DNA from: Candidatus Omnitrophota bacterium
Lineage (GTDB): Bacteria; Omnitrophota; Gorgyraeia; Tantalellales; Tantalellaceae
Reading direction: 5' to 3'
Length of the DNA stretch: 64,000 nt
Assembly: GCA_014728045.1 (NCBI GenBank)
Contig: WJMH01000012.1
Coordinates: 63,239-127,238, forward strand
This document shows, piece after piece, positions 18,277-55,265 of the stretch (positions are counted from its first letter, which is position 1; every line of letters begins with the position of its first letter). Under the pieces are notes generated by a model. The model saw nothing but the letters and a program-made list of their open reading frames with translations. It had not been told where the DNA came from and searched no databases. The position numbers were made by a program, and so were the translations under genes.

Positions 18277-18662
18277 GGGGGTGACAGGACTCGACGTGTT
18301 CTTTAGGTCTTGGAGCAGCATGCAGAGGTTCCAGGTGGCCTCTTTAAAAACCTGGAAAACAATAAACGCAGACTACAATCCAGTAGCCGAAGCCGAGTCT
18401 ATCTTGGCTGAGGATGCGTTAAATGTTCCCTCTATGATGGGAACTGGTTCATTAGTTGGCGCCTTGGCCATCTAAATAGGACCTAAACTAACAAGGACTG
18501 CTGTAGTGATTTCTCCTAGCTTCAGCCAGTATCAGGAGAATGCTCCCGGAAGGTTCCCCGTCTATCGGGTCTTCCCGGAAAAGATCAATAGGTAGACTAA
18601 GCATGTAGATACTCCTCGGTCAAAGTTCCCGGACCCGGGTTCGAATCCCGGCACCTCCACCA
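18277..18662 (+). ncRNA. ssrA: tmRNA (ssrA)
   Basis: 5' GGGGGUGACAGGACUCGACG and 3' GGUUCGAAUCCCGGCACCUCCACCA form a tRNA-like acceptor and T-arm. Resume codon GCA lies about 95 nt from the 5' end. Tag ORF runs to UAA at 18476-18478. Immediately follows smpB. Confidence 0.85.
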
Positions 18663-18709
18663 ATTTTTCCAAGCATAAAGCCGATTTCCATCAGGGAGTC
18701 GGCTTTTTT
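18644..18709 (+). repeat. 66-bp direct repeat, copy 1 (tmRNA 3' end plus terminator)
   Basis: Identical to 20207-20272 ('AATCCCGGCACCTCCACCAATTTTTCCAAGCATAAAGCCGATTTCCATCAGGGAGTCGGCTTTTTT'). Confidence 0.85.
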
Positions 18710-18710
18710 A
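18676..18710 (+). terminator. intrinsic terminator of ssrA
   Basis: AAGCCGA-N14-TCGGCTT followed by T6. A second copy sits at 20239-20272 inside the downstream repeat. Confidence 0.6.
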
Positions 18711-20206
18711 TAAATCATTATAACGATGTATGCATAATTACGCATTTTACGTAATCCTGGGGATGCAGGTTAGGACTTGAGGGGTGAACAAAAATGGAGT
18801 GTATTCCAAATTAGTTGATCTATTTTGGAAATAATCGAGATTAGATATGCTGGATCGCTTTTTATGCGGAAAAAACAAGTAAATCTTGCATTTTTATAAG
18901 TTTTAAGTATACTTAAAATATATATAAAAAATAAAGGAGTTTTAAGTATGATTAAAGAATATATTAAAAGAAAACACTATCTTGATAAGGTTTCTTCTTT
19001 TATTGATAAAGATATCATTAAGGTGATCGTCGGACAGCGCCGAGTAGGGAAAAGTTACTTGTTATACCAGATAATGGATATCATCAGGGATAAAGGTGTG
19101 AAAGCCGGAAATATAATTTATATAAATAAAGAACTACATGATTTCGATGATATTAATACTTATAAAGACCTTTTGGAGTACATAGAGGGAAGGATAAAAA
19201 ATAAAAGAAAACATTATGTTTTTCTTGATGAGGTTCAGGAAATAGAAAAATTTGAAAAAGCTTTGGAAAGTATGCAGGCCTCAGGCAAGTATGATATTTA
19301 CTGCACAGGCAGTAACGCGAATCTACTTTCCGGTGAATTGGCTACTCACCTTAGCGGGCGATATGTCGAAATTAAAGTTTATGGTCTTTCATATCCTGAA
19401 TTCCTTAATTTTCATAAATTGAATAATGATCAGGAATCTCTTTTAAAGTACATCAGGTACGGTGGCCTTCCGTTCTTGATCAATCTGGAGTTCAAGGATG
19501 AGATCATCTATGAATACCTTAAGAATATTTACAGTACGATCCTTTTCAAGGACATCGTGAAAAGACATTCGATACGGAATGTAGCATTCTTAGAACGCCT
19601 GGTTGAATATCTGGCCGATAATACGGGTTCTTTGGTTTCGGCGAAAAGCATAAGTGATTTTTTAAAATCCCAGAAGATAAAACTTTCCCCCAATATTGTA
19701 TTGGATTACTTATCCTTCTTATCGTCTGCTTTTTTTGTGTTTAAAGTCCAAAGGTCTGATGTAGCAGGCAAAAAGATATTTGAGATCGGCGAAAAATATT
19801 ATTTCGAAGATCTTGGGTTAAGACATTCTGTAGTCGGATATAAACAGGTAGATATCAATAAAGTCCTGGAAAATCTTGTTTTTCTTCATCTAAAGATCTC
19901 CGGATACAAGATAACTGTGGGAAAGTTAAAAGATAAAGAAATCGATTTTGTATGCACTAGAGGCGGGGAAAAGTTATATGTACAGGTAGCATATCTAATA
20001 GATAGCCAGAAGATCATAGACAGGGAATTCGGAAATCTTTTAAAAATAGAAGATAATTATCCGAAACTTGTAGTTTCAATGGACGAGGTGGGGGGAGATA
20101 AATACAAAGGAATTGAGCAGGTTAATATAAGAAAGTTCTTAGGTAGTTTACTTTAGAAAACAGAAAAAACGTGGTGAAATGCCCCAGTTGAGCACGAAAA
20201 TAGGAA
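18710..20206 (+). mobile_element. AT-rich islet inserted at the tmRNA 3' end, bounded by 66-bp direct repeats; no integrase
   Basis: Duplication of the tmRNA terminus and lower GC than the flanks. Single cargo gene. Confidence 0.5.
18948..20156 (+). CDS. AAA-family ATPase with C-terminal DUF4143 (COG1373-type)
   Basis: Walker A 'GQRRVGKSYLL'. Walker B 'VFLDEVQ'. C-terminal block '...KEIDFVCTRGGEKLYVQVAY...' resembling DUF4143, possibly a PD-(D/E)xK-like fold. Confidence 0.7.
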   Translation: MIKEYIKRKHYLDKVSSFIDKDIIKVIVGQRRVGKSYLLYQIMDIIRDKGVKAGNIIYINKELHDFDDINTYKDLLEYIEGRIKNKRKHYVFLDEVQEIEKFEKALESMQASGKYDIYCTGSNANLLSGELATHLSGRYVEIKVYGLSYPEFLNFHKLNNDQESLLKYIRYGGLPFLINLEFKDEIIYEYLKNIYSTILFKDIVKRHSIRNVAFLERLVEYLADNTGSLVSAKSISDFLKSQKIKLSPNIVLDYLSFLSSAFFVFKVQRSDVAGKKIFEIGEKYYFEDLGLRHSVVGYKQVDINKVLENLVFLHLKISGYKITVGKLKDKEIDFVCTRGGEKLYVQVAYLIDSQKIIDREFGNLLKIEDNYPKLVVSMDEVGGDKYKGIEQVNIRKFLGSLL

Positions 20207-46627: not shown

Positions 46628-46704
46628 CTGGCACGCCCGACAGGATTCGAACCTGTGACCCTCTGCTTAGAAGGCAGATGCTCTATCCGGCTGAGCTACG
46701 GGCG
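46628..46704 (-). tRNA. tRNA-Arg (anticodon TCT)
   Basis: Cloverleaf in the reverse complement: anticodon loop CTTCTAA, T-loop TTCGAAT, encoded CCA. Confidence 0.85.
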
Positions 46705-46733
46705 CAATCGGTTAAATAACATATTGACTAATT

Positions 46734-46817
46734 CTGGTGCGGATGGAGGGACTCGAACCCCCACGGTAAAACCACTGGCTCCTAAGGCCAGCGCGTCTGC
46801 CAGTTCCGCCACATCCG
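46734..46817 (-). tRNA. tRNA-Leu (anticodon TAG)
   Basis: Anticodon loop CTTAGGA, long variable arm, TTCGAGT T-loop, CCA. Confidence 0.85.
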
Positions 46818-46827
46818 CTGATATCAT

Positions 46828-46906
46828 AATGGTCGGGAAGGTGGGATTCGAACCCACGACCCCCTGCTCCCAAAGCAGGTACGCTAGCCAAACTGCGCCA
46901 CTTCCC
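46828..46906 (-). tRNA. tRNA-Pro (anticodon TGG)
   Basis: Acceptor CGGGAAG/CTTCCCG, anticodon loop TTTGGGA, CCA. Confidence 0.85.
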
Positions 46907-47002
46907 GTTTGTAACCATATATAGCTCTAAGCACTTGCATTGATGAACAAGATTTATAATTATAACAACGTGATTTTTATAAGTCAACTCGCATTTTTTT
47001 AA

Positions 47003-47031
47003 TTGACTTAAGGCTTTCGAGCACATAGAAT
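47003..47031 (+). promoter_or_regulatory. sigma70-like promoter (TTGACT-N17-TAGAAT) for tRNA-His
   Basis: Hexamers at 47003-47008 and 47026-47031. The tRNA starts about 25 nt downstream. Confidence 0.35.
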
Positions 47032-47056
47032 AAGGATTCGTCTAGGTTATTCTTGT

Positions 47057-47133
47057 GGTGGGCGTAGCTCAGTTGGTAGAGCGCCTGACTGTGGCTCAGG
47101 TTGTCGTGGGTTCAAATCCCATCGCTCACCCCA
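47057..47133 (+). tRNA. tRNA-His (anticodon GTG), with G-1
   Basis: Extra 5' G, anticodon loop CTGTGGC, TTCAAAT T-loop, CCA. Confidence 0.85.
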
Positions 47134-47142
47134 TCTTAACGG

Positions 47143-47172
47143 AAAAGCCGGTCCTTCGGGCCGGCTTTTTTC
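47143..47172 (+). terminator. intrinsic terminator after tRNA-His
   Basis: AAGCCGG-TCCTTCGGG-CCGGCTT followed by T6. Confidence 0.75.
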
Positions 47173-47215
47173 GTTAATCCTTTCAAATACATATGTTCTA
47201 GGGTATAATACCGGC

Positions 47216-48625
47216 ATGTCATTGGAAAATAATATTAATCTTATAAGAAAAATAGAGGATCACCTTTCCGCACAAGTACCTATTCGCCTGGGCGTCAATA
47301 AAAAGAACGAACTTGCGCGGCTTGTCTATGAAATATGCCGCGGGCGTTCAGTGGAGCCGGAACAGGTGTTCATCCGTATAGACCTTGGCGGCATGGTCGA
47401 GAAAGGTAAGAACGGCCTCTTTCGCAGGATAAAAAAAGCTCTTCTCAAGTTGAGATATCCCTCTATGAGAGAGGGGGACGACCCGCATATCATGCCTTTT
47501 ACCGTCGATAAACCGGTGCCGGAGCCGGAGGCCTGGGATTTCAGGATCCTGCCGGAGAAAATATACGTGGAAAGGTCGGTCGAGAGCGTCGAATGGACCG
47601 GGTCTTTTCTCTCGCGCTTCCCGGAGGCAAGCGTGGATATTATAGACGATCCCGGGCAGATCCTGTCATCTTTCACCGGCAAATCCCAGGTCGAGCTTTA
47701 TAACGAAAGGTCCCGGCGGATCCTGGTCACGAAGAATAGATCCGGATACGTGAAACCCTGTCCCTGTACAAAGAACGTCCACAGGTGCGGTTACAACATA
47801 CTCAATCTGGGCTTCGGCTGCCCCATGGACTGTTCGTACTGTTACCTGCAGATGTACAGCAACTCACCATGGCTTGTGTTCCAGGCGAATGTTGATGATT
47901 ATCGCGCGCCGATAGAGGATTTCGATGCAAGGGTCGGCCGCAGGACGCGCATAGGTACGGGTGAATTCACCGATTCTCTCTATCTGGATAAGTATACCTC
48001 GTACTCCTCGTACCTCATACCCTTGTTCAGGCAGATGAGGAACCTTGTTCTTGAACTTAAGACGAAAACGGTCGATATCGAAAACGTTCTCAGGCACGAG
48101 CCCCATGATAACGTGGTGGTCTCCTGGTCCATCAACACAAGGAAGATGGCCCGGAAATACGAGAAAGGCGCCAGTTCGATCGATGAAAGAATACGGGCCG
48201 CTTCACGCGCCGCCGCAAGAGGGTTCAAAGTAGGTTTCCATTTTGACCCGATAATCTATTACGAAGGGTGGGAGGATGAGTACAGGCAAACCGTAGAAGA
48301 ACTGTTCTCGAACAGGGATATCCTAGAGAACACCGAATGGATGAGCCTGGGCACTTTACGTTATACTCCGGGTCTGAAGCAGGTCGCCGAGCAGAGGTTC
48401 GGGGAGAACCGGATGTATTACGCCGGGGAATTCTTTCTCGGCGCGGACGGAAAACTCAGGTATCCCGCCAGGCTCAGGAGCCTCATGTATAATAAAATGA
48501 TAGAATGGATAAGGGCTTATCCGACATCCGCCTGGATCTACCTGTGCATGGAGCCTGATGAGATATGGGGGGATACTCTGCTGGAGAAAAGCGATTATTC
48601 TTATGGTGCCAAGATAAGGGGGTAA
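47216..48625 (+). CDS. radical SAM protein of the SplB / DNA-photolyase-like (COG1533) type with about 100-aa N-terminal extension
   Basis: 'GFGCPMDCSYCYLQ' (CxxxCxxC with the YCY signature of the SplB family) preceded by 'CPCTKNVHRCGYN'. Confidence 0.5.
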   Translation: MSLENNINLIRKIEDHLSAQVPIRLGVNKKNELARLVYEICRGRSVEPEQVFIRIDLGGMVEKGKNGLFRRIKKALLKLRYPSMREGDDPHIMPFTVDKPVPEPEAWDFRILPEKIYVERSVESVEWTGSFLSRFPEASVDIIDDPGQILSSFTGKSQVELYNERSRRILVTKNRSGYVKPCPCTKNVHRCGYNILNLGFGCPMDCSYCYLQMYSNSPWLVFQANVDDYRAPIEDFDARVGRRTRIGTGEFTDSLYLDKYTSYSSYLIPLFRQMRNLVLELKTKTVDIENVLRHEPHDNVVVSWSINTRKMARKYEKGASSIDERIRAASRAAARGFKVGFHFDPIIYYEGWEDEYRQTVEELFSNRDILENTEWMSLGTLRYTPGLKQVAEQRFGENRMYYAGEFFLGADGKLRYPARLRSLMYNKMIEWIRAYPTSAWIYLCMEPDEIWGDTLLEKSDYSYGAKIRG

Positions 48626-48627
48626 AA

Positions 48628-49332
48628 ATGCGTTCAGTGAAGATATTGTTATCGGTCATGTTTTTTGCGGTCAATTGTTCTTTGGCTATCTCCCAGCCGG
48701 CCAGTCCGGAACCCGGAGAGATCGTGAAACTTCCTGAGCCCAGTCATGAAGGCAACGTGTCGGTGGAGGAGGCGATATACCAGCGCAAGTCAACAAGGAA
48801 TTTCTCGGACAGGGCGCTCACGCTAGATGAGGTTTCGCAGCTTCTCTGGGCCGCCGGGGGGAGTACCCATGATGGTCTGACCGGCCCGACCAGGTCCTAT
48901 CCTTCCGCCGGCGCTATTTATCCTCTTGAGATATACATTGTCGTAGGGGACGTGGTCGGTCTCAATAAGGGCATATATTCGTATGACTGGAGGAGACACC
49001 AGCTCGAACTGGTTAAAAAAGGCGATCTTCGCGATGAACTTTACAAGGCGGCTTTGTCCCAGAGAATGGTGCGCACGGCACCTCTTACGCTGGTGGTCAC
49101 TGCCCAGCATGCCAAGACCGCAAGAAGGTACGGCCAGCGAGGCGTCAACAGGTATGTGAGCATGGATACCGGTCACCTCGGACAGAATGTCCACCTGCAG
49201 GCGGAAAGCATGGGTCTGGGAACGGTTATGGTGGGCGCTTTCGTGGACAAAGAGGTAAGCAGGGTCCTGGGGACCGAAGAAGAGATGCCGGTTTACATTA
49301 TGCCGGTGGGGTATCCCTTGAAAAGATCATGA
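48628..49332 (+). CDS. SagB/ThcOx-type nitroreductase-family dehydrogenase with signal peptide
   Basis: Signal peptide 'MRSVKILLSVMFFAVNCSLAIS'. 'STRNFSDRALTLDEVSQLLWAAGG' and 'YPSAGAIYPLEIYIVVGD' match the SagB-type dehydrogenase domain. Confidence 0.55.
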   Translation: MRSVKILLSVMFFAVNCSLAISQPASPEPGEIVKLPEPSHEGNVSVEEAIYQRKSTRNFSDRALTLDEVSQLLWAAGGSTHDGLTGPTRSYPSAGAIYPLEIYIVVGDVVGLNKGIYSYDWRRHQLELVKKGDLRDELYKAALSQRMVRTAPLTLVVTAQHAKTARRYGQRGVNRYVSMDTGHLGQNVHLQAESMGLGTVMVGAFVDKEVSRVLGTEEEMPVYIMPVGYPLKRS

Positions 49333-50435
49333 TAAGAGCCGATCTTAAGCGCATAGACGCCGCTATAAGCGAACTGGCAAGGGAAATAGATTTTTATCCC
49401 CTGCTCACGCCCGTCAACCGTCTGGAGGAACAGGAGAAGTTCTTCTTGAACCTGGCGAGGGAGAAGGAATATAATCCCCGGTTCATTTATAAAAAGAAGG
49501 ATTTCACCGGAGAGAAGGACACTCTCCGGAGGATGCGCGATAGCCTGAGGGAAGAGGATCTTCTGGAGGGCATCTTCCGCCGCAAGATCGATTTCATGCT
49601 GACCGAGCAGGAGCTATTGGATTGCGGGGACTGGTCTTTCGGCGAAGTGGCGAAAAAGCTGCACGGCACCCCCGAAGAGGGCTGCATCGAAAAAGCGGCG
49701 GCCATACTGGAAAATAGCCTTCAAAGTGATTACGCCTTTCCCGAGGAAAGCGTTACCCCGGAAGAGATGGCGGGGGAACTCAGCGAATATATGCGCGGGA
49801 AAGGCCTTGAATGGAAGGTCAGGATAACCGATAAGATCATACCCAAGATAACCGTATCGGGCAAGGACAGGACGCTGTATATTAACTCCCGGATAAGATA
49901 TACCCGGGCCGAGGTGCAGAGATTAAAAGTGCATGAGATAGAGGTTCATGTATACAGGGGCGCTAACGGAGCTGTTCAGCCCTACAGGATATTCACCGAA
50001 GGCCTTGCCGGCTACAACGAGACCGAAGAGGGCCTGGCCGTTATGATGGAAGATGTATCGGGTTGTCTTGAAGTGGATACGCGCCAGATGAAGCTCTATG
50101 CCGGACGCTCTCTGTCTACGCATCTTTGCATGAGGGGCTCGTTCTACGAGGCTTACAGGGGTCTGGAAAGGTATTTTCCGGGTTATATGGCTTACCGTCT
50201 TGTCGAAAGGGCCAAAAGGGGCATTTCGGACACTTCGCTGAAAGGATGTTTGACGAAAGGATCACATTATATCAGCGGATGGATAAAACTTCGCAAGTAT
50301 GTTGAACAACACAAGGATTTGAGTATAATCTATGTTGGGAAGGTCAGAATGGAAGACGCCGGATCGTTAGAAGAACTTTTGCGTGAGAATCTGCTGAAAC
50401 CGGCGCAGTATTTCCCGGATTTCAGATGCGGATAA
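49329..50435 (+). CDS. DUF1704 / 'QEGLA-motif' family protein (MATCAP-like putative metallopeptidase)
   Basis: 'TEEGLAVMMEDVSG' (QEGLA-type motif) and 'VHEIEVHVYRG' (putative metal-binding H-E-x-x-x-H). Confidence 0.55.
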   Translation: MIRADLKRIDAAISELAREIDFYPLLTPVNRLEEQEKFFLNLAREKEYNPRFIYKKKDFTGEKDTLRRMRDSLREEDLLEGIFRRKIDFMLTEQELLDCGDWSFGEVAKKLHGTPEEGCIEKAAAILENSLQSDYAFPEESVTPEEMAGELSEYMRGKGLEWKVRITDKIIPKITVSGKDRTLYINSRIRYTRAEVQRLKVHEIEVHVYRGANGAVQPYRIFTEGLAGYNETEEGLAVMMEDVSGCLEVDTRQMKLYAGRSLSTHLCMRGSFYEAYRGLERYFPGYMAYRLVERAKRGISDTSLKGCLTKGSHYISGWIKLRKYVEQHKDLSIIYVGKVRMEDAGSLEELLRENLLKPAQYFPDFRCG

Positions 50436-51895
50436 GAGTTCCTGAAATGAAGAAAATAAGCGAATATCTTATTGAGAAATACGGCAAGTGGGGGTGGCTC
50501 GGGCAAAGAGCGCACGACGCCTGCGGGATAAACCGCATCCTTCCGCTGGATCTTATCATATGTTGTGATCACGGCAGGGAACTGCCCGTTTATTTCAGGC
50601 CGGAGGATGTTTATTCCGTGGAGGGCGGGACTGGTATACGCAGGGACTGGTCGAACGAGGACCTTAATGACAGCCTCAAGGGGGATCTTGGTCGCAGGAT
50701 AAGACGCAGGTTGGTGACGCAAGGCGGGAAAGTTAATCTGATCTGTTACAGGTCGGTAAGACGTCTTGAGAATGGAAAAGGCAGGTACAGAAATAATCCG
50801 CGCCTTCTCGCGGTCGCCCAGAGGATAAAAAAACGTTTCGACAACAAAGCTCTTCTGCACAGGAGCTTGCCCGGGCTTTCTCTTCCGCAGATACCCGGCA
50901 TCGTGGACAGGATCAGCAGGGCGGATTTCAAGAGGCTTCGAGAGGACCTCGAGCTTCCTTTCGTTATACAGTTCCCATACGGCTCCAGCGGGCACTATAC
51001 CTTTTTGATAAAAAGGCCGAAAGACCTGAAGAGCCTGGTGGAGCATCATCCTGAAGCCACCGCTCTCATCAGAAAGTATATTGACGGGTTTTCACTGAAC
51101 GTCAACGCTGTCGTACTTTCTTCCGGGAACGGCCCCAGAGTAATGTGTTCAGCCCCTTCGGTGCAGATGACAGGTATCCCCGAGTGCAGCAATTCCCCGG
51201 CGTCCTTCTGCGGGAACGATTATTCCGCGGCAAGGGACCTTGACCCTGCTCTTGTGCGTCAGGTCAAGAGCTATATGGAAACGATCGGCCGGTGGATGGC
51301 TTCTTCCGGGTTCAGGGGTCTTTTCGGCATGGATTTCGTGGTAAAGGACGGGACGGCATATCCGGTCGAGATAAACCCCAGGTTCCAGAACTCGACCTCT
51401 CTTTTGACGGTGCTTCATTCTTTATCAGCTAATCGAAAAGGAACGCTTTTCCTGTTGCACATAGCCGAATTCCTGCAGGATAAAGACGTTCTCCTAAGGC
51501 GTTATATAAAAGATTTTCCCGCAGAGGAACTCATGCGTCCGGTCGAGGGAAGCCAGCTTATCATACATAACCGTCTGGAAAAGAGACTGGTGACCGGTGA
51601 TCTCTTCCCGGGTGTCTACCGCCGGCAAAGAAAGGGCCTTAAGCACCTCAAGCAAGGCGCCTCACTGTGGGACTGCTCAGGGCCGGATGAATTTCTGCTG
51701 ACTTCGGGGGTGCCGGCTCCTTCACTTAGGGTAGAACCCAACGCGCCGGTCCTGAAGATACAGTCCCGGGGGAACCTGCTGGATATTTCCAATAAGAGGC
51801 GTCTTACTCCCGAGACCGCGAAAATAGTATCGCTAGTATACGAAAGGCTTTCGTTGAAAAAACCGGGCCGGGTAAAAACCGCCGAGCCCGCATGA
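50426..51895 (+). CDS. ATP-grasp-fold ligase (RimK / alpha-L-glutamate-ligase-like)
   Basis: 'FVIQFPYGSSGHYTFLI' flexible-loop region, 'GLFGMDFVVKDGTAYPVEINPRFQNS' (ATP-grasp E-x-N catalytic block). Confidence 0.55.
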   Translation: MRIRVPEMKKISEYLIEKYGKWGWLGQRAHDACGINRILPLDLIICCDHGRELPVYFRPEDVYSVEGGTGIRRDWSNEDLNDSLKGDLGRRIRRRLVTQGGKVNLICYRSVRRLENGKGRYRNNPRLLAVAQRIKKRFDNKALLHRSLPGLSLPQIPGIVDRISRADFKRLREDLELPFVIQFPYGSSGHYTFLIKRPKDLKSLVEHHPEATALIRKYIDGFSLNVNAVVLSSGNGPRVMCSAPSVQMTGIPECSNSPASFCGNDYSAARDLDPALVRQVKSYMETIGRWMASSGFRGLFGMDFVVKDGTAYPVEINPRFQNSTSLLTVLHSLSANRKGTLFLLHIAEFLQDKDVLLRRYIKDFPAEELMRPVEGSQLIIHNRLEKRLVTGDLFPGVYRRQRKGLKHLKQGASLWDCSGPDEFLLTSGVPAPSLRVEPNAPVLKIQSRGNLLDISNKRRLTPETAKIVSLVYERLSLKKPGRVKTAEPA

Positions 51896-51917
51896 TCTCA
51901 AAAGAAAAGGAAATCGC

Positions 51918-53495
51918 ATGATTGAACGTGACCCCAGATACTACGTCACAGGTTATGACGGGAGAGATCCCTATAAAGCCCCTTTTTACATCAACGCGTT
52001 AAGTTTTGACGGGGAGGAAGGGGGTTTCAACTGTTCCCTTATAGAGAAGTTCAACGAATTCATCAGGGGACATCGGATATCTTCATCCTGCCGCCTTGAA
52101 GGTTCTTTCAAAAAAGATTCCGTAAAGGTGCCTTCCAGGATAGTTGTGGTCAACGCTTCTCACGATGACCTGCCCACCTCTTATGAGACGGCCAGGATCT
52201 TTAATGATTTCTGCAGGGAGAAAGGCTATGCCGCCGAGGCCGTTGTGGTGAACACCCGGGAACACCTGCTTAAGGAGGTCAATGTCGATCCTGAGGAGAC
52301 TTTACTGGTCAGCCAGTGTGTTGACAAGAATGTATACAACGTTGCTCTGGCAGAAGAGCTGGCCCAGAAAGGTACGGTCACCGTCCCCGGCAGGGTCACC
52401 GCCCCGGGAAGCGTGTTCTCCGATAAGGACAGCACCTATCGGTTGCTTTCCGAGGAGGGAAGCGATTGGAGCAAGGTAGCAAGATATGTAAAGGTGCCCG
52501 TGGAGGGAAAGAGCGTCGAAGAGGTTGTTGATGAACTTTTCCAGGCGGTGGACGAGCTTGAACAGTTGACCGGGGATATTACATTCTTCGTTAAGCCTCA
52601 TGAAGGCGGCGGCGGACTGGGGGGTTTTCGCATAACCAAGGTGAAGGAGGGGTACATAATACCGGATCTATCCAAGGTTTCCGGGGACCTCTCCGAAATA
52701 CACCCGACCTTCATTGATTTCGACCTTTCCAGCGAGGCCAAATTAAGGGAGCTTTTGTGGATATACAGGCTTTTCGCAGGCAATGATAAAATGTCGGAAA
52801 ACTATTTGAAGGTTAAACTTCCCGTTATGAACAAGGACCAGACCGAAGCTATCGGTATCCTGAAAGAGTACCTCGCCGGCAGCGAGATAAAAAGGCACAA
52901 AAAACTTGCCGGTATGGTGCTCAGTCCGGAGAAAGCCCGCAGCACGCTGGTGGAGGCGATAAAGATCTTCGAAAAGAAGTTCTACAGAAGATATGTGCCG
53001 CTTGTTAACGAGCATATAGATTTCGGATTATGGGGATTGAGGGCCCATTACAGGCTTTCCACCGAAGGGCCCAGACTGGAGACGATGTATCACCGAATTT
53101 TCCAGCTCGGGTTCACCGAGGAAGGCCTGGGGTACGTGGGGTCGGATAATATCTCTAATAAACAGACCGGGGATCTTGAGATCACCAGGCTGGGACCGGT
53201 TAACCCGATAATGCTCGAGGCCATAGGAGGAGAGCAGGCGCTTTTTGATTCGCTGTTAAAGGGCGCAGAAGCTTTGGCCGAACTCAATGATCTTCTTGCG
53301 GATGAGGAGAAAGGATCCGTTCCGCTCAGGCTGCAGTTGGACCTGGCGACGATATCCCGCCGTATCGGAGAGGGCAATGCCGATACCGCACGGGGATTAT
53401 GCCTGGCCTCGCGCTGGTCTGATTTCGTGCGTAACGCCCGCCAGTGGCTTGAGGACAGCCTTGTGTATTATACAAAAGTAAAGGAGTCCGGTTGA
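51918..53495 (+). CDS. second ATP-grasp-like protein (tentative)
   Basis: 'ITFFVKPHEGGGGLGGFRI' Gly-rich loop reminiscent of ATP-grasp. The remainder is divergent. Confidence 0.35.
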   Translation: MIERDPRYYVTGYDGRDPYKAPFYINALSFDGEEGGFNCSLIEKFNEFIRGHRISSSCRLEGSFKKDSVKVPSRIVVVNASHDDLPTSYETARIFNDFCREKGYAAEAVVVNTREHLLKEVNVDPEETLLVSQCVDKNVYNVALAEELAQKGTVTVPGRVTAPGSVFSDKDSTYRLLSEEGSDWSKVARYVKVPVEGKSVEEVVDELFQAVDELEQLTGDITFFVKPHEGGGGLGGFRITKVKEGYIIPDLSKVSGDLSEIHPTFIDFDLSSEAKLRELLWIYRLFAGNDKMSENYLKVKLPVMNKDQTEAIGILKEYLAGSEIKRHKKLAGMVLSPEKARSTLVEAIKIFEKKFYRRYVPLVNEHIDFGLWGLRAHYRLSTEGPRLETMYHRIFQLGFTEEGLGYVGSDNISNKQTGDLEITRLGPVNPIMLEAIGGEQALFDSLLKGAEALAELNDLLADEEKGSVPLRLQLDLATISRRIGEGNADTARGLCLASRWSDFVRNARQWLEDSLVYYTKVKESG

Positions 53496-55198
53496 ATTCG
53501 GTCTACATAACAATATTTTCTATTCTGGTCTTGTGGGCGGCTTATCACTTTTACGGTAATTACATAGCCAGGAAGGTGTTCCGTGCCAGGAGGGACAACC
53601 CCGTGCCCAGCGAAGAGCTGAGAGACGATGTGGACTACGTGCCCACGAACAGGGAAGTGCTTTTCGGTCACCATTTCGCTTCGATAGCGGGTACCGGCCC
53701 CATTGTAGGACCCGCCATAGCCGTTATCTGGGGATGGGTGCCCGCGCTTATCTGGATACTGGTTGGTTCAATTTTCGCGGGCGCGGTTCATGACTACGCT
53801 TCCTTGATGATGTCCACCCGGAAAAAAGGCGTATCCATCGGTGAGCTCTCAAAAGGGGTCATCAGCCCACGGGTCAGGACGCTTTTTCTTTTCGTTATAC
53901 TGTTCGCCCTGTGGATAGTCGTCGCCATATTCGGGATGGTGATGGCGGTAATATTCAAGATGTACCCGCAAGCGGTGTTCCCGGTGTGGATACAGATACC
54001 GATAGCGGTATCTGTGGGATGGCTGGCGTACCGCAAAAAGTGGAATATGACGGTAATGTCCATCGTCGCGGTGGTCCTTATGTACGCGTCCATAATTGTC
54101 GGGGTCAGCATGCCGCTCAGCATGCCCGGACTTTTCGGTCTTACGCCCATGGCCATGTGGATAATAGTGCTTTTTATCTACGCGTACATAGCCTCGGTGT
54201 TGCCTGTCTGGACACTTTTACAACCACGCGATTACGTTAATTCGCACCAGCTGATAGTTGGTATAATTCTTATAGTGCTTGGTATCTTTTTCGCGCATCC
54301 GGTGATGGTCGCCCCGGCCGTACAGCTCGCGCCCGACGGGGCTCCGCCCATACTGCCGTTCCTTTTTATAACCATCGCCTGCGGGGCCATCAGCGGTTTT
54401 CATTCGCTGGTCAGTTCCGGCACCAGCTCAAAACAGCTGAAGAACGAGGAGGATGTTCATTTTGTGGCATACGGCGGCATGCTCGCAGAGGGCCTTGTCG
54501 GAGTGCTTGTTGTGGTGGCAGTGGCCGCGGGGATAGGTATTTTCGCGAAAACAGCCACCGGTGAGGTGCTGAGTGGAAGCGCCGCGTGGGAGTATCATTA
54601 CTCGAGCTGGGAAGCGGCTCGGGGGCTTACCGCGAAGGTAGCCGCTTTCGTTAACGGCTCGGCCAACATGCTTACGGCCCTGGGGATCCCGCTTGAGTAC
54701 GGACAGGCCGTTATTGGCGTTCTCATCGCTTCTTTTGCCGGTACTACTCTCGATACGGCCACCCGTATACAAAGGTACGTGGTGACGGAGCTGGCGGTCG
54801 ATTATAAAATCAAACCTATGCAGAAAAGGTATCCCGCGACTGCTCTTGTTGTCCTTGCCGCGGCGGCTCTTGCCTTCAGTGAAGGAAGCGGCAAGGGGGC
54901 GCTGCTTTTATGGCCGCTTTTCGGTATAAGCAACCAGCTTCTGGCGGGACTGGTTCTGCTTGTTGCGACGATATACATCATCAAGGAGGAGAGGACCAAT
55001 GCCTGGACAACAGGCGTACCGATGATATTCATGATAATCACATCCAGCTGGGCGATGACGGTAGGGCTTGTTAATTTCTATAATACGGGATCGCATCTCA
55101 GGTTCGTTATCGGCAGCATGCTGTTCCTGTTGGAGATATGGATGATAATCGAGGCGGTTTTATACCTTCAAAGAAGAAAGAAAGGCGAGCGCCTGTAG
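53492..55198 (+). CDS. cstA: carbon starvation protein A (CstA-family peptide/pyruvate transporter)
   Basis: Polytopic membrane protein. N-terminus 'VLWAAYHFYGNYIARKVF' and overall CstA architecture. Stop overlaps the downstream tRNA by about 10 nt. Confidence 0.8.
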   Translation: MNSVYITIFSILVLWAAYHFYGNYIARKVFRARRDNPVPSEELRDDVDYVPTNREVLFGHHFASIAGTGPIVGPAIAVIWGWVPALIWILVGSIFAGAVHDYASLMMSTRKKGVSIGELSKGVISPRVRTLFLFVILFALWIVVAIFGMVMAVIFKMYPQAVFPVWIQIPIAVSVGWLAYRKKWNMTVMSIVAVVLMYASIIVGVSMPLSMPGLFGLTPMAMWIIVLFIYAYIASVLPVWTLLQPRDYVNSHQLIVGIILIVLGIFFAHPVMVAPAVQLAPDGAPPILPFLFITIACGAISGFHSLVSSGTSSKQLKNEEDVHFVAYGGMLAEGLVGVLVVVAVAAGIGIFAKTATGEVLSGSAAWEYHYSSWEAARGLTAKVAAFVNGSANMLTALGIPLEYGQAVIGVLIASFAGTTLDTATRIQRYVVTELAVDYKIKPMQKRYPATALVVLAAAALAFSEGSGKGALLLWPLFGISNQLLAGLVLLVATIYIIKEERTNAWTTGVPMIFMIITSSWAMTVGLVNFYNTGSHLRFVIGSMLFLLEIWMIIEAVLYLQRRKKGERL

Positions 55199-55265
55199 CT
55201 CAGCTGGATAGAGCAACTGGCTTCGAACCAGTAGGTCGCAGGTTCAAGTCCTGCCGGGCGCGCCA
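55189..55265 (+). tRNA. tRNA-Arg (anticodon TCG)
   Basis: Acceptor GCGCCTG/CGGGCGC (one GU pair), anticodon loop CTTCGAA, T-loop TTCAAGT, CCA. Confidence 0.8.

Follow-up and report, generated by a model that had tools for sequence, protein, structure and literature searches.

The window analysed here is a stretch of 64,000 nucleotides from a Candidatus Omnitrophota bacterium (assembly GCA_014728045.1, contig WJMH01000012.1, positions 63,239 to 127,238), and our subject is a block of six genes within it, together with a smaller unit of three genes that encodes a predicted peptidase and two predicted ligases. The six open reading frames (ORFs), here called g1 to g6, all lie on the + strand at the coordinates of an initial annotation of this DNA, and the block is bracketed by tRNA genes, as that annotation had described. 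In order, they encode a radical SAM enzyme of the spore photoproduct lyase (SPL) family, a nitroreductase-fold protein, a homologue of the MATCAP/DUF1704 peptidases, two ATP-grasp ligases and a CstA-family transporter. All six family guesses made at the outset hold, through Pfam or NCBIfam matches or, for g5, through AlphaFold structure alone, and the motifs pointed out at that time are present (CPMDCSYC in g1, HEIEVH and EEGLA in g3, E-I-N in g4, GGGGLGG in g5). Among the profiles that had been named, PF08014 and TIGR03605 scored above their cut-offs, whereas TIGR02421 and the SplB model TIGR04070 fell short of theirs.

The genes are tightly packed, and their overlapping or abutting junctions fall where they had been placed: g1 and g2 are separated by 2 nt, g2 and g3 overlap in an ATGA, g3 and g4 overlap by 10 nt, g4 and g5 are separated by 22 nt, and g5 and g6 overlap by 4 nt. 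An alternative upstream ATG for g2 lies at 48565, and g6 starts with TTG. We show here that the conserved functional unit is the triad g3-g4-g5 (49329-53495) and not the six-gene block, because only g3, g4 and g5 stay linked across lineages.

A MATCAP-family peptidase homologue and two ATP-grasp ligases

The first core member, g3 (49329..50435, + strand, 368 amino acids), is a homologue of the MATCAP/DUF1704-family Zn metallocarboxypeptidases, as supported by PF08014, by alignment with MATCAP and by its linkage to g4 and g5. Residues 43-364 match PF08014 with 154.7 bits (cut-off 27; E 4.3e-45), and phmmer relates the protein to human MATCAP/KIAA0895L (7z5g) at 1.2e-13. The match to the NCBIfam 'QEGLA motif protein' TIGR02421 (164.9 bits) stays under the cut-off of 338.65, and by these scores g3 is a distant subfamily rather than the proteobacterial QEGLA equivalog. 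The gluzincin-type HExxxH metal-binding and catalytic motif, HEIEVH (H202, E203, H207; 49932..49949, + strand), aligns with HEIGTH of MATCAP, and the QEGLA-type motif EEGLA (E233-A237; 50025..50039, + strand), which likely carries the third metal ligand, aligns with TEEGLA of MATCAP, or in a longer stretch NETEEGLA with human NPTEEGLA. A RAKRG…DTS…GC block is also kept between g3 and human MATCAP, the RxxRG block being retained beside HExxxH and EGLA. In a broad alignment of g3 homologues (A3), which takes in the proteobacterial QEGLA proteins, H202, E203, H207, E234, G235, L236 and A237 are invariant. With its MATCAP-type HExxxH…EGLA site intact, g3 looks active and is predicted to be a carboxypeptidase.

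The second core member, g4 (50426..51895, + strand, 489 amino acids), belongs to the structural clade of PylC, PurK and the L-amino-acid ligases. A match to ATP-grasp_3 (3.9e-10), the fold itself and the Mg-binding D / E-x-N residues all place it in the ATP-grasp superfamily. Its AlphaFold model has a predicted local distance difference test score (pLDDT) of 91.6, and the nearest folds are those of PylC, PurK/PurD and the ligases BL00235 (Lal), PGM1, BesA, LdmS-like, BacD and RizA. In an alignment of 30 homologues the Mg/ATP-binding block E315-I-N317-PRFQNS (51368..51394, + strand) stands out: D303, I316, N317, P318, R319, F320 and Q321 are invariant, and E315 is conserved in at least 90%. A further invariant motif near the N-terminus (W22, W24, G26, Q27, R28, H30, D31) is specific to g4. 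Against the RimK family TIGR00768 the protein scores only 16.6 bits (cut-off 143.4). We also considered whether g4 and g5 are paralogues and rejected this, as there is no BLASTP similarity between them.

More distant relatives of g4 were seen in other settings (L074 577-4167; L083 6001-8313; L081 4838-7419). A distant g4-like ATP-grasp_3 protein of Roseospira has a radical SAM enzyme and a gene resembling Orn/Arg decarboxylases as its neighbours, and there are proteins of 770 amino acids that bear both a distant g4-like ATP-grasp_3 domain and a radical SAM domain. In Nomurabacteria a distant relative lies near a LysW-like Zn-ribbon gene and a pyridoxal-phosphate enzyme, inside a murein gene cluster.

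The third core member, g5 (51918..53495, + strand, 525 amino acids), has no Pfam or NCBIfam match at E <= 0.01, including the RimK family (TIGR00768 / PF08443). Its AlphaFold model, built with 30 homologues, is nevertheless a confident three-domain ATP-grasp (pLDDT 89.9; predicted template-modelling score 0.90), whose top Foldseek matches are D-Ala-D-Ala ligases and whose nearest folds are DcsG, ArgX/LysX, Ddl, RimK and GshB. By its structure g5 belongs to the clade of ATP-grasp ligases that holds RimK, LysX-ArgX, DcsG, Ddl and GshB, but as an orphan, recognisable by fold and conserved residues and not by sequence. The parts expected of the fold are all present, namely the lysine, the glycine-rich loop and the Mg-binding D / E-x-N. 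The ATP-binding Lys226 and the glycine-rich loop, with its GGGGLGG, lie in KPHEGGGGLGGFR (52593..52631, + strand), where VKPxxGG[GS]G[LV]GGFR is kept in 30 of 30 aligned homologues; in the Mg-binding block D475 … E485-G-N487-ADTARG (53337..53396, + strand), D475, E485 and N487 are invariant. Between these, a family-specific and nearly invariant loop, DNISNKQTG (53145..53171, + strand), is a candidate substrate-binding element. When a profile of the g5 family was searched against 1.84 billion representative proteins, all 46 matches were family members or fragments of them, and no other ATP-grasp family was reached. The g5 family is thus small, sharply isolated and previously unannotated, and it adds a new family to the amidoligase repertoire. 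The two best-conserved proteins of the block are CstA and g5, with 85% and 79% identity, respectively, in the Omnitrophota locus L006.

Conservation of the triad and its neighbours

Neighbourhoods were gathered from divergent g5 homologues and from 68 loci of species-representative genomes, about 70 related loci in all, and the proteins of the window were mapped onto them; the fractions given here count assessable loci only. The same arrangement was met again in over 20 further genomes. Beside g5 stands g4 in 52 of 53 loci (28 of 29 outside Omnitrophota), and g3 stands beside the g4-g5 pair in 44 of 51 (25 of 27 outside Omnitrophota). The order and strand of g3-g4-g5 are kept in seven phyla or lineages, the loci other than Omnitrophota being labelled Desulfobacterales/Thermodesulfobacteriota, Elusimicrobiota, Chlamydiota, Auribacterota (Theseobacter), KSB1 and Nitrospinaceae, and the stop/start overlap of g3 and g4 is found in several phyla. 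Clustering of the 7,076 ORFs of at least 35 amino acids in these loci returned g3, g4 and g5, together with shadow ORFs, as the only cross-lineage families; the remaining neighbours, such as a citrate synthase in Desulfobacterales, are specific to their lineages. That the genes are unrelated and adjacent by chance is highly improbable as a general account: it is true of g1 and probably of g2 relative to the triad, but for g3-g4-g5 it is excluded by an order kept in seven phyla with unrelated flanks. The tie between DUF1704/MATCAP and ATP-grasp proteins that had been proposed from the sequence is therefore well founded, and a separate alphaproteobacterial module, described below, bears it out as well.

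The initial annotation had gone further and read all six genes as one system, which as an Omnitrophota pathway would have g4 and g5 make a peptide-like molecule, g1 and g2 tailor it, g3 cleave it and CstA re-import it. Several features agree with such a pathway: the packing is tight and co-directional with overlapping junctions, terminator-like sites within the block are not above chance (13, against 11.3 in shuffled sequences), many Omnitrophota genomes retain the order even where identity falls to about 50%, and distant g4 relatives elsewhere adjoin, or are fused with, radical SAM domains. The order radical SAM enzyme, (nitroreductase), MATCAP, g4, g5, CstA is in fact common in Omnitrophota, where the radical SAM gene was found in 14 of 15 loci, the nitroreductase in 10 of 15, the MATCAP gene in 19 of 24 and CstA in 18 of 21. 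However, only g3-g4-g5 are kept in other phyla. Outside Omnitrophota the radical SAM gene occurs in 0 of 19 loci and CstA in 0 of 27, and the one nitroreductase recorded there (1 of 19, in L058) was rejected as an orthologue, being a 25%-identical, unlinked paralogue 8 kb away. Even within Omnitrophota, g2 is missing from 5 of 15 loci and CstA from 3 of 21. Synteny in this phylum says little about function, because the four upstream tRNAs, tRNA-Arg(tcg), an AsmA-family gene, NadE, GH130 and tRNA-Lys/Gly are equally conserved there. The search for a precursor peptide was likewise negative: no conserved small ORF was found in the window, in the enlarged intergenic gaps of the other loci or in the ORF clustering. 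We thus consider a six-gene pathway improbable. Operon-like packing kept within one phylum did not mark the functional unit here, which calls for caution in reading such blocks.

The properties of the neighbouring genes point the same way. g1 (47216..48625, + strand) matches the SPL family PF20903 at 2.9e-24 (86 bits, cut-off 27) and Geobacillus SPL (4rh0) at 5.8e-20 over 288 aligned residues; these include the radical SAM CxxxCxxC cluster motif, CPMDCSYC (47819..47842, + strand), which aligns with GCMGHCHYCYLQ of SPL, and g1 also has a cysteine that aligns with the SPL active-site region. It differs from SplB in scoring far under the equivalog cut-off of TIGR04070 (112.4 bits against 400), in an additional N-terminal region of 110 amino acids that has no family match, and in a host that is not a spore former. 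Domain searches of g1 found no SPASM, RRE (peptide-recognition) or RiPP (peptide made by the ribosome and then post-translationally modified) domain. These features do not fit a peptide-tailoring enzyme, and g1 is a backbone gene lying outside the module; it encodes an SPL-type radical SAM enzyme that is probably DNA-repair-like. In the Omnitrophota locus L075, the tRNA-Pro/Leu/Arg genes, a g1 orthologue (47%), a FecR-like gene and tRNA-Arg(tcg) are followed by the usual downstream backbone of NadE (58%), GH130 (82%) and the two genes that come after (76% and 48%), while g2-g6 are missing; a more distant g1 homologue has wholly unrelated neighbours. Hence g1 belongs to the Omnitrophota backbone and is separable from g2-g6.

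The small protein g2 (48628..49332, + strand) is a variable, Omnitrophota-only neighbour with a SagB-type nitroreductase fold (PF00881, 1.5e-29; SagB domain TIGR03605, 136.2 bits, above the cut-off of 78.4). Its N-terminus (48628-48696, + strand) resembles a signal peptide, and the hydrophobic segment is kept in 13 orthologues. The signal is Sec-like without a twin-arginine motif, which is unusual for a flavoenzyme fold. Because g2 has this segment and g3, g4 and g5 have no signal-peptide-like N-terminus, g2 is predicted to be exported and to act in a compartment other than that of the cytoplasmic g3-g5, which is a further point against the six-gene pathway. The transporter g6 (53492..55198, + strand; PF02554 at 9e-145) is likewise confined to Omnitrophota, where the gap between g5 and g6 ranges from -1 to 482 nt across loci. 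At most, it may serve this lineage as an accessory for the transport of peptides or amino acids.

The bracketing tRNA genes, detected by ARAGORN and Rfam, are part of the conserved backbone. On the - strand lies a cluster of tRNA-Arg(tct), tRNA-Leu(tag) and tRNA-Pro(tgg) (46629..46907), followed on the + strand by tRNA-His(gtg) (47058..47133) and, at the far end of the block, by tRNA-Arg(tcg) (55189..55265), itself a backbone marker. Across Omnitrophota loci (46629-47133 compared with L008, L009, L015, L023 and L034) the content of the upstream cluster (His, Pro, Leu, Arg-tct) is kept while its orientation and order flip, which indicates repeated local inversions. This layout had been taken for that of a cassette acquired at a tRNA hotspot. 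We rejected a tRNA-associated genomic island: GC content is flat across the region (0.50-0.55), no att-like direct repeats flank the block beyond chance, no integrase was found among the ORFs, and block and bracket are conserved Omnitrophota-wide, the bracket being ancestral to the phylum. The slot between g1 and tRNA-Arg(tcg) varies in content, as L075 illustrates, with no mobility signature.

A scan of the region with Rfam and ARAGORN found tRNAs alone and no riboswitch or other known RNA. The terminator hairpin that had been noted after tRNA-His is present (47146-47172, + strand) and reads GCCGGTCC-TTCG-GGCCGGC followed by T6. Upstream of g1 lies a promoter-like TTCAAA-16-TATAAT (47182-47209, + strand). 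This TATAAT ends just 6 nt short of the ATG, and 47182-47216 shows no Shine-Dalgarno motif, which suggests a leaderless g1 mRNA. At the other end, the last 10 nt of cstA overlap tRNA-Arg(tcg), so that the TAG stop codon (55196-55198) lies inside the tRNA, and the same overlap is seen in the Omnitrophota loci L006, L018 and L043. If cstA and the tRNA were co-transcribed, cleavage by RNase P would yield a cstA mRNA without a stop codon; a promoter-like site inside cstA (55055-55084) could drive the tRNA on its own. Elsewhere in the window (18277-18990), ARAGORN gives two tmRNA predictions that overlap but differ in tag peptide, and marks one as permuted.

Other loci hold further genes beside the triad. 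In Desulfobacterales a citrate synthase gene lies just upstream of the MATCAP gene (L003 375-1655, with a gap of 10 nt, and about 17 other loci), which may reflect synteny within this lineage or else point to a carboxylate as the substrate; β-citrylglutamate in animals is made by an ATP-grasp enzyme. Two unrelated loci have nickel-related genes beside the triad: in L058 (7048-7464) the MATCAP gene has a NikR-type regulator directly upstream, and in L065 (253-1509) a gene for a LarC-type nickel-insertion protein lies upstream of g4-g5. This may be chance, or it may hint that the product binds a metal. In the deltaproteobacterial locus L053 (about 2170-2740), an ORF of 146 amino acids with an RF-1 domain (GGQ, an ArfB-like peptidyl-tRNA hydrolase) lies between the MATCAP gene and g4.

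Proposed function of the triad

From the folds, the catalytic residues and the cross-phylum linkage we infer a chemistry, a substrate and a direction for each step. The two unrelated ATP-grasp proteins g4 and g5 would act as carboxylate-amine ligases, each activating a carboxylate as an acyl-phosphate and joining an amino acid to it, so that two successive or alternating amide bonds would be formed independently of the ribosome. The cytoplasmic g3, as a MATCAP-type Zn carboxypeptidase, would remove one or more C-terminal residues in turnover, recycling or regulation. The product would most likely be a short soluble peptide or an amino-acid conjugate built from free amino acids, the main alternative being a peptide tail on a protein encoded elsewhere. 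We put the probability of a ribosome-independent ligase-ligase-carboxypeptidase module, with a small peptide or conjugate as the favoured product, at roughly 0.5, and give a small peptide about double the likelihood of a protein tail. Among the nearest folds of g4, every one is that of a small-molecule amino-acid ligase; next to the module there is neither a conserved small ORF nor a target gene; both partners of the alphaproteobacterial MATCAP protein, a GshB-like ligase and an N-formylglutamate amidohydrolase, are small-molecule enzymes; and a distant g4 relative lies in a gene cluster for peptidoglycan precursors.

Several observations weigh against a small-molecule module. The characterised MATCAP enzymes are protein-tail carboxypeptidases and do not act on free peptides (PMC10499314), and RimK and LysX/ArgX, which are among the best structural matches of g5, likewise act on protein C-termini. 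The MATCAP gene is deleted together with g2 in five Omnitrophota loci and is absent from L065, while g5 stands alone in L055. As the MATCAP gene is missing from some loci, the peptidase is therefore accessory to the ligase pair; a dispensable peptidase fits turnover, yet it weakens the idea of an obligate 'cycle'. With g1 to g6 packed so tightly in Omnitrophota, there may also be a functional extension specific to that lineage.

Some of these points would suit reversible C-terminal tagging of a protein, in which g4, g5 or both add residues and the MATCAP homologue erases them, so that writer and eraser would form a bacterial parallel to the cycle of tubulin tyrosination. RimK adds poly-Glu tails to ribosomal protein S6, and the TTL/TTLL enzymes act on tubulin. 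Besides the MATCAP catalytic site kept in g3 and the protein-tail activity of its characterised relatives, the self-contained nature of the module and its spread over several phyla are what a universal protein target would lead one to expect, and a distant g4 relative adjoins a LysW-like Zn-ribbon gene. On the other hand, ORF clustering linked no candidate target to the module in any lineage, a check of the window's ORFs for LysW-like or poly-acidic tails found none, and there is no match to the Pfam TTL or RimK families; for the tubulin tyrosine ligase family PF03133 in particular, neither a sequence match nor a closest structural match was obtained. We regard tagging, and with it the analogy to the tyrosination cycle, as a tentative second choice. 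It is more doubtful still that the triad is a C-terminal-tail writer/eraser that represents the prokaryotic counterpart, and possibly the evolutionary source, of the tyrosination/detyrosination and glutamylation code of tubulin; the triad is notably present in phyla of the PVC (Planctomycetota-Verrucomicrobiota-Chlamydiota) group, namely Omnitrophota, Auribacterota and Chlamydiota.

The structural matches of g5 also bring envelope or storage-polymer chemistry to mind. In an envelope version the ligases would add amino acids to a peptidoglycan stem peptide or precursor and the carboxypeptidase would trim it, in a Van-like or Ddl-like manner; in a storage version the ligases would assemble a cyanophycin-like amino-acid polymer, to be degraded from its C-terminus by the carboxypeptidase in starvation. 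The top Foldseek matches of g5 to D-Ala-D-Ala ligases would agree with this, as would the Nomurabacteria relative of g4 amid FtsW, MurG, MraY-like, FemAB and Mur-ligase genes and the position of CstA, a 'carbon starvation' transporter, 3' of g5 in Omnitrophota. However, in none of the approximately 70 loci is the triad linked to murein or polymer genes, and the Nomurabacteria protein is 30% identical to g4 and has neither g3 nor g5 nearby. Both versions thus seem quite unlikely to us.

Known system types were rejected as well. A known anti-phage defence system is not supported, as g1-g5 gave no PADLOC matches. For a RiPP cluster of the thiazole/oxazole-modified microcin or linear azol(in)e-containing peptide type (TOMM/LAP), g2 does match the SagB model of the azoline dehydrogenases, but there is no YcaO among the genes at 43.5-58 kb, no small ORF is conserved and g2 is predicted to be exported. 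A graspetide or other ATP-grasp RiPP cluster would have a precursor gene next to a ligase nearest to the MdnB/C-type macrocyclases, and the locus shows no such pairing.

Returning to the favoured small-peptide or conjugate module, the triad comprises just three genes, compact and complete in themselves, whose products have confident models and readily recognised catalytic residues; this makes the role of a bacterial MATCAP homologue assayable. It was only in 2022 that MATCAP was identified as an enzyme that detyrosinates tubulin. A new non-ribosomal peptide, or a reversible tag on a protein C-terminus, would, if it proved to be the product, be new biology for poorly known phyla such as Omnitrophota and Elusimicrobiota.

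Comparison with known systems

The closest characterised relative of g3 is human MATCAP/KIAA0895L (TMCP1), which shares with it PF08014 and the catalytic core HExxxH…TEEGLA…RAKRG. The two proteins are about 25-30% identical, and this over the catalytic half only, and no tubulin is found in the context of g3. The triad resembles the tubulin tyrosine ligase cycle in pairing a peptidase with ATP-grasp ligases that might undo its action. A precedent for an ATP-grasp ligase and a metallocarboxypeptidase acting on one C-terminal tail is LysX with LysK, which share the amino-carrier LysW. Unlike RimK and LysX/ArgX, however, the triad ligases show no membership of those families at the level of sequence, no LysW-like gene or pathway enzymes lie nearby, and g5 is about 230 amino acids longer, with family-specific insertions. 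Nor does g4 have a significant sequence match to the L-amino-acid ligases or PylC (BL00235, BacD, RizA, PGM1, BesA, LdmS; PylBCD), from which it is set apart by its own invariant N-terminal motif. To our knowledge, none of the known L-amino-acid ligase or PylC systems includes a MATCAP-type peptidase.

DUF1704/QEGLA proteins reportedly co-occur with RimK-like ATP-grasp proteins, an observation that the initial annotation credited to Iyer, Aravind and colleagues; the open-access literature yielded no article mentioning both MATCAP/DUF1704 and ATP-grasp. An instance of such pairing is the alphaproteobacterial module, which we found with differing flanks on Sinorhizobium pSymB and on the Aminobacter plasmid pANY103b (L077 4415-8216; L079 2463-6207). 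It consists of an N-formylglutamate amidohydrolase (FGase), a QEGLA/MATCAP protein of 620-628 amino acids and a GshB-like ATP-grasp protein, and like the triad it sets a MATCAP-family peptidase directly beside an ATP-grasp ligase. In contrast to the triad, it has a single ligase, of the classical GSH-S/RimK type (PF02955, 1.4e-50), whose profile is not similar to that of g5 (hhalign probability 0.3), and it includes the amidohydrolase. Its peptidase carries an extra N-terminal region of 275 amino acids that g3 does not have; in Sinorhizobium this region is similar neither to g4 nor to any solved structure. Set against this pairing of MATCAP with ATP-grasp, the triad stands apart through its two ligases, neither of which is by sequence of the RimK/GshB type and one of which comes from an unannotated family.

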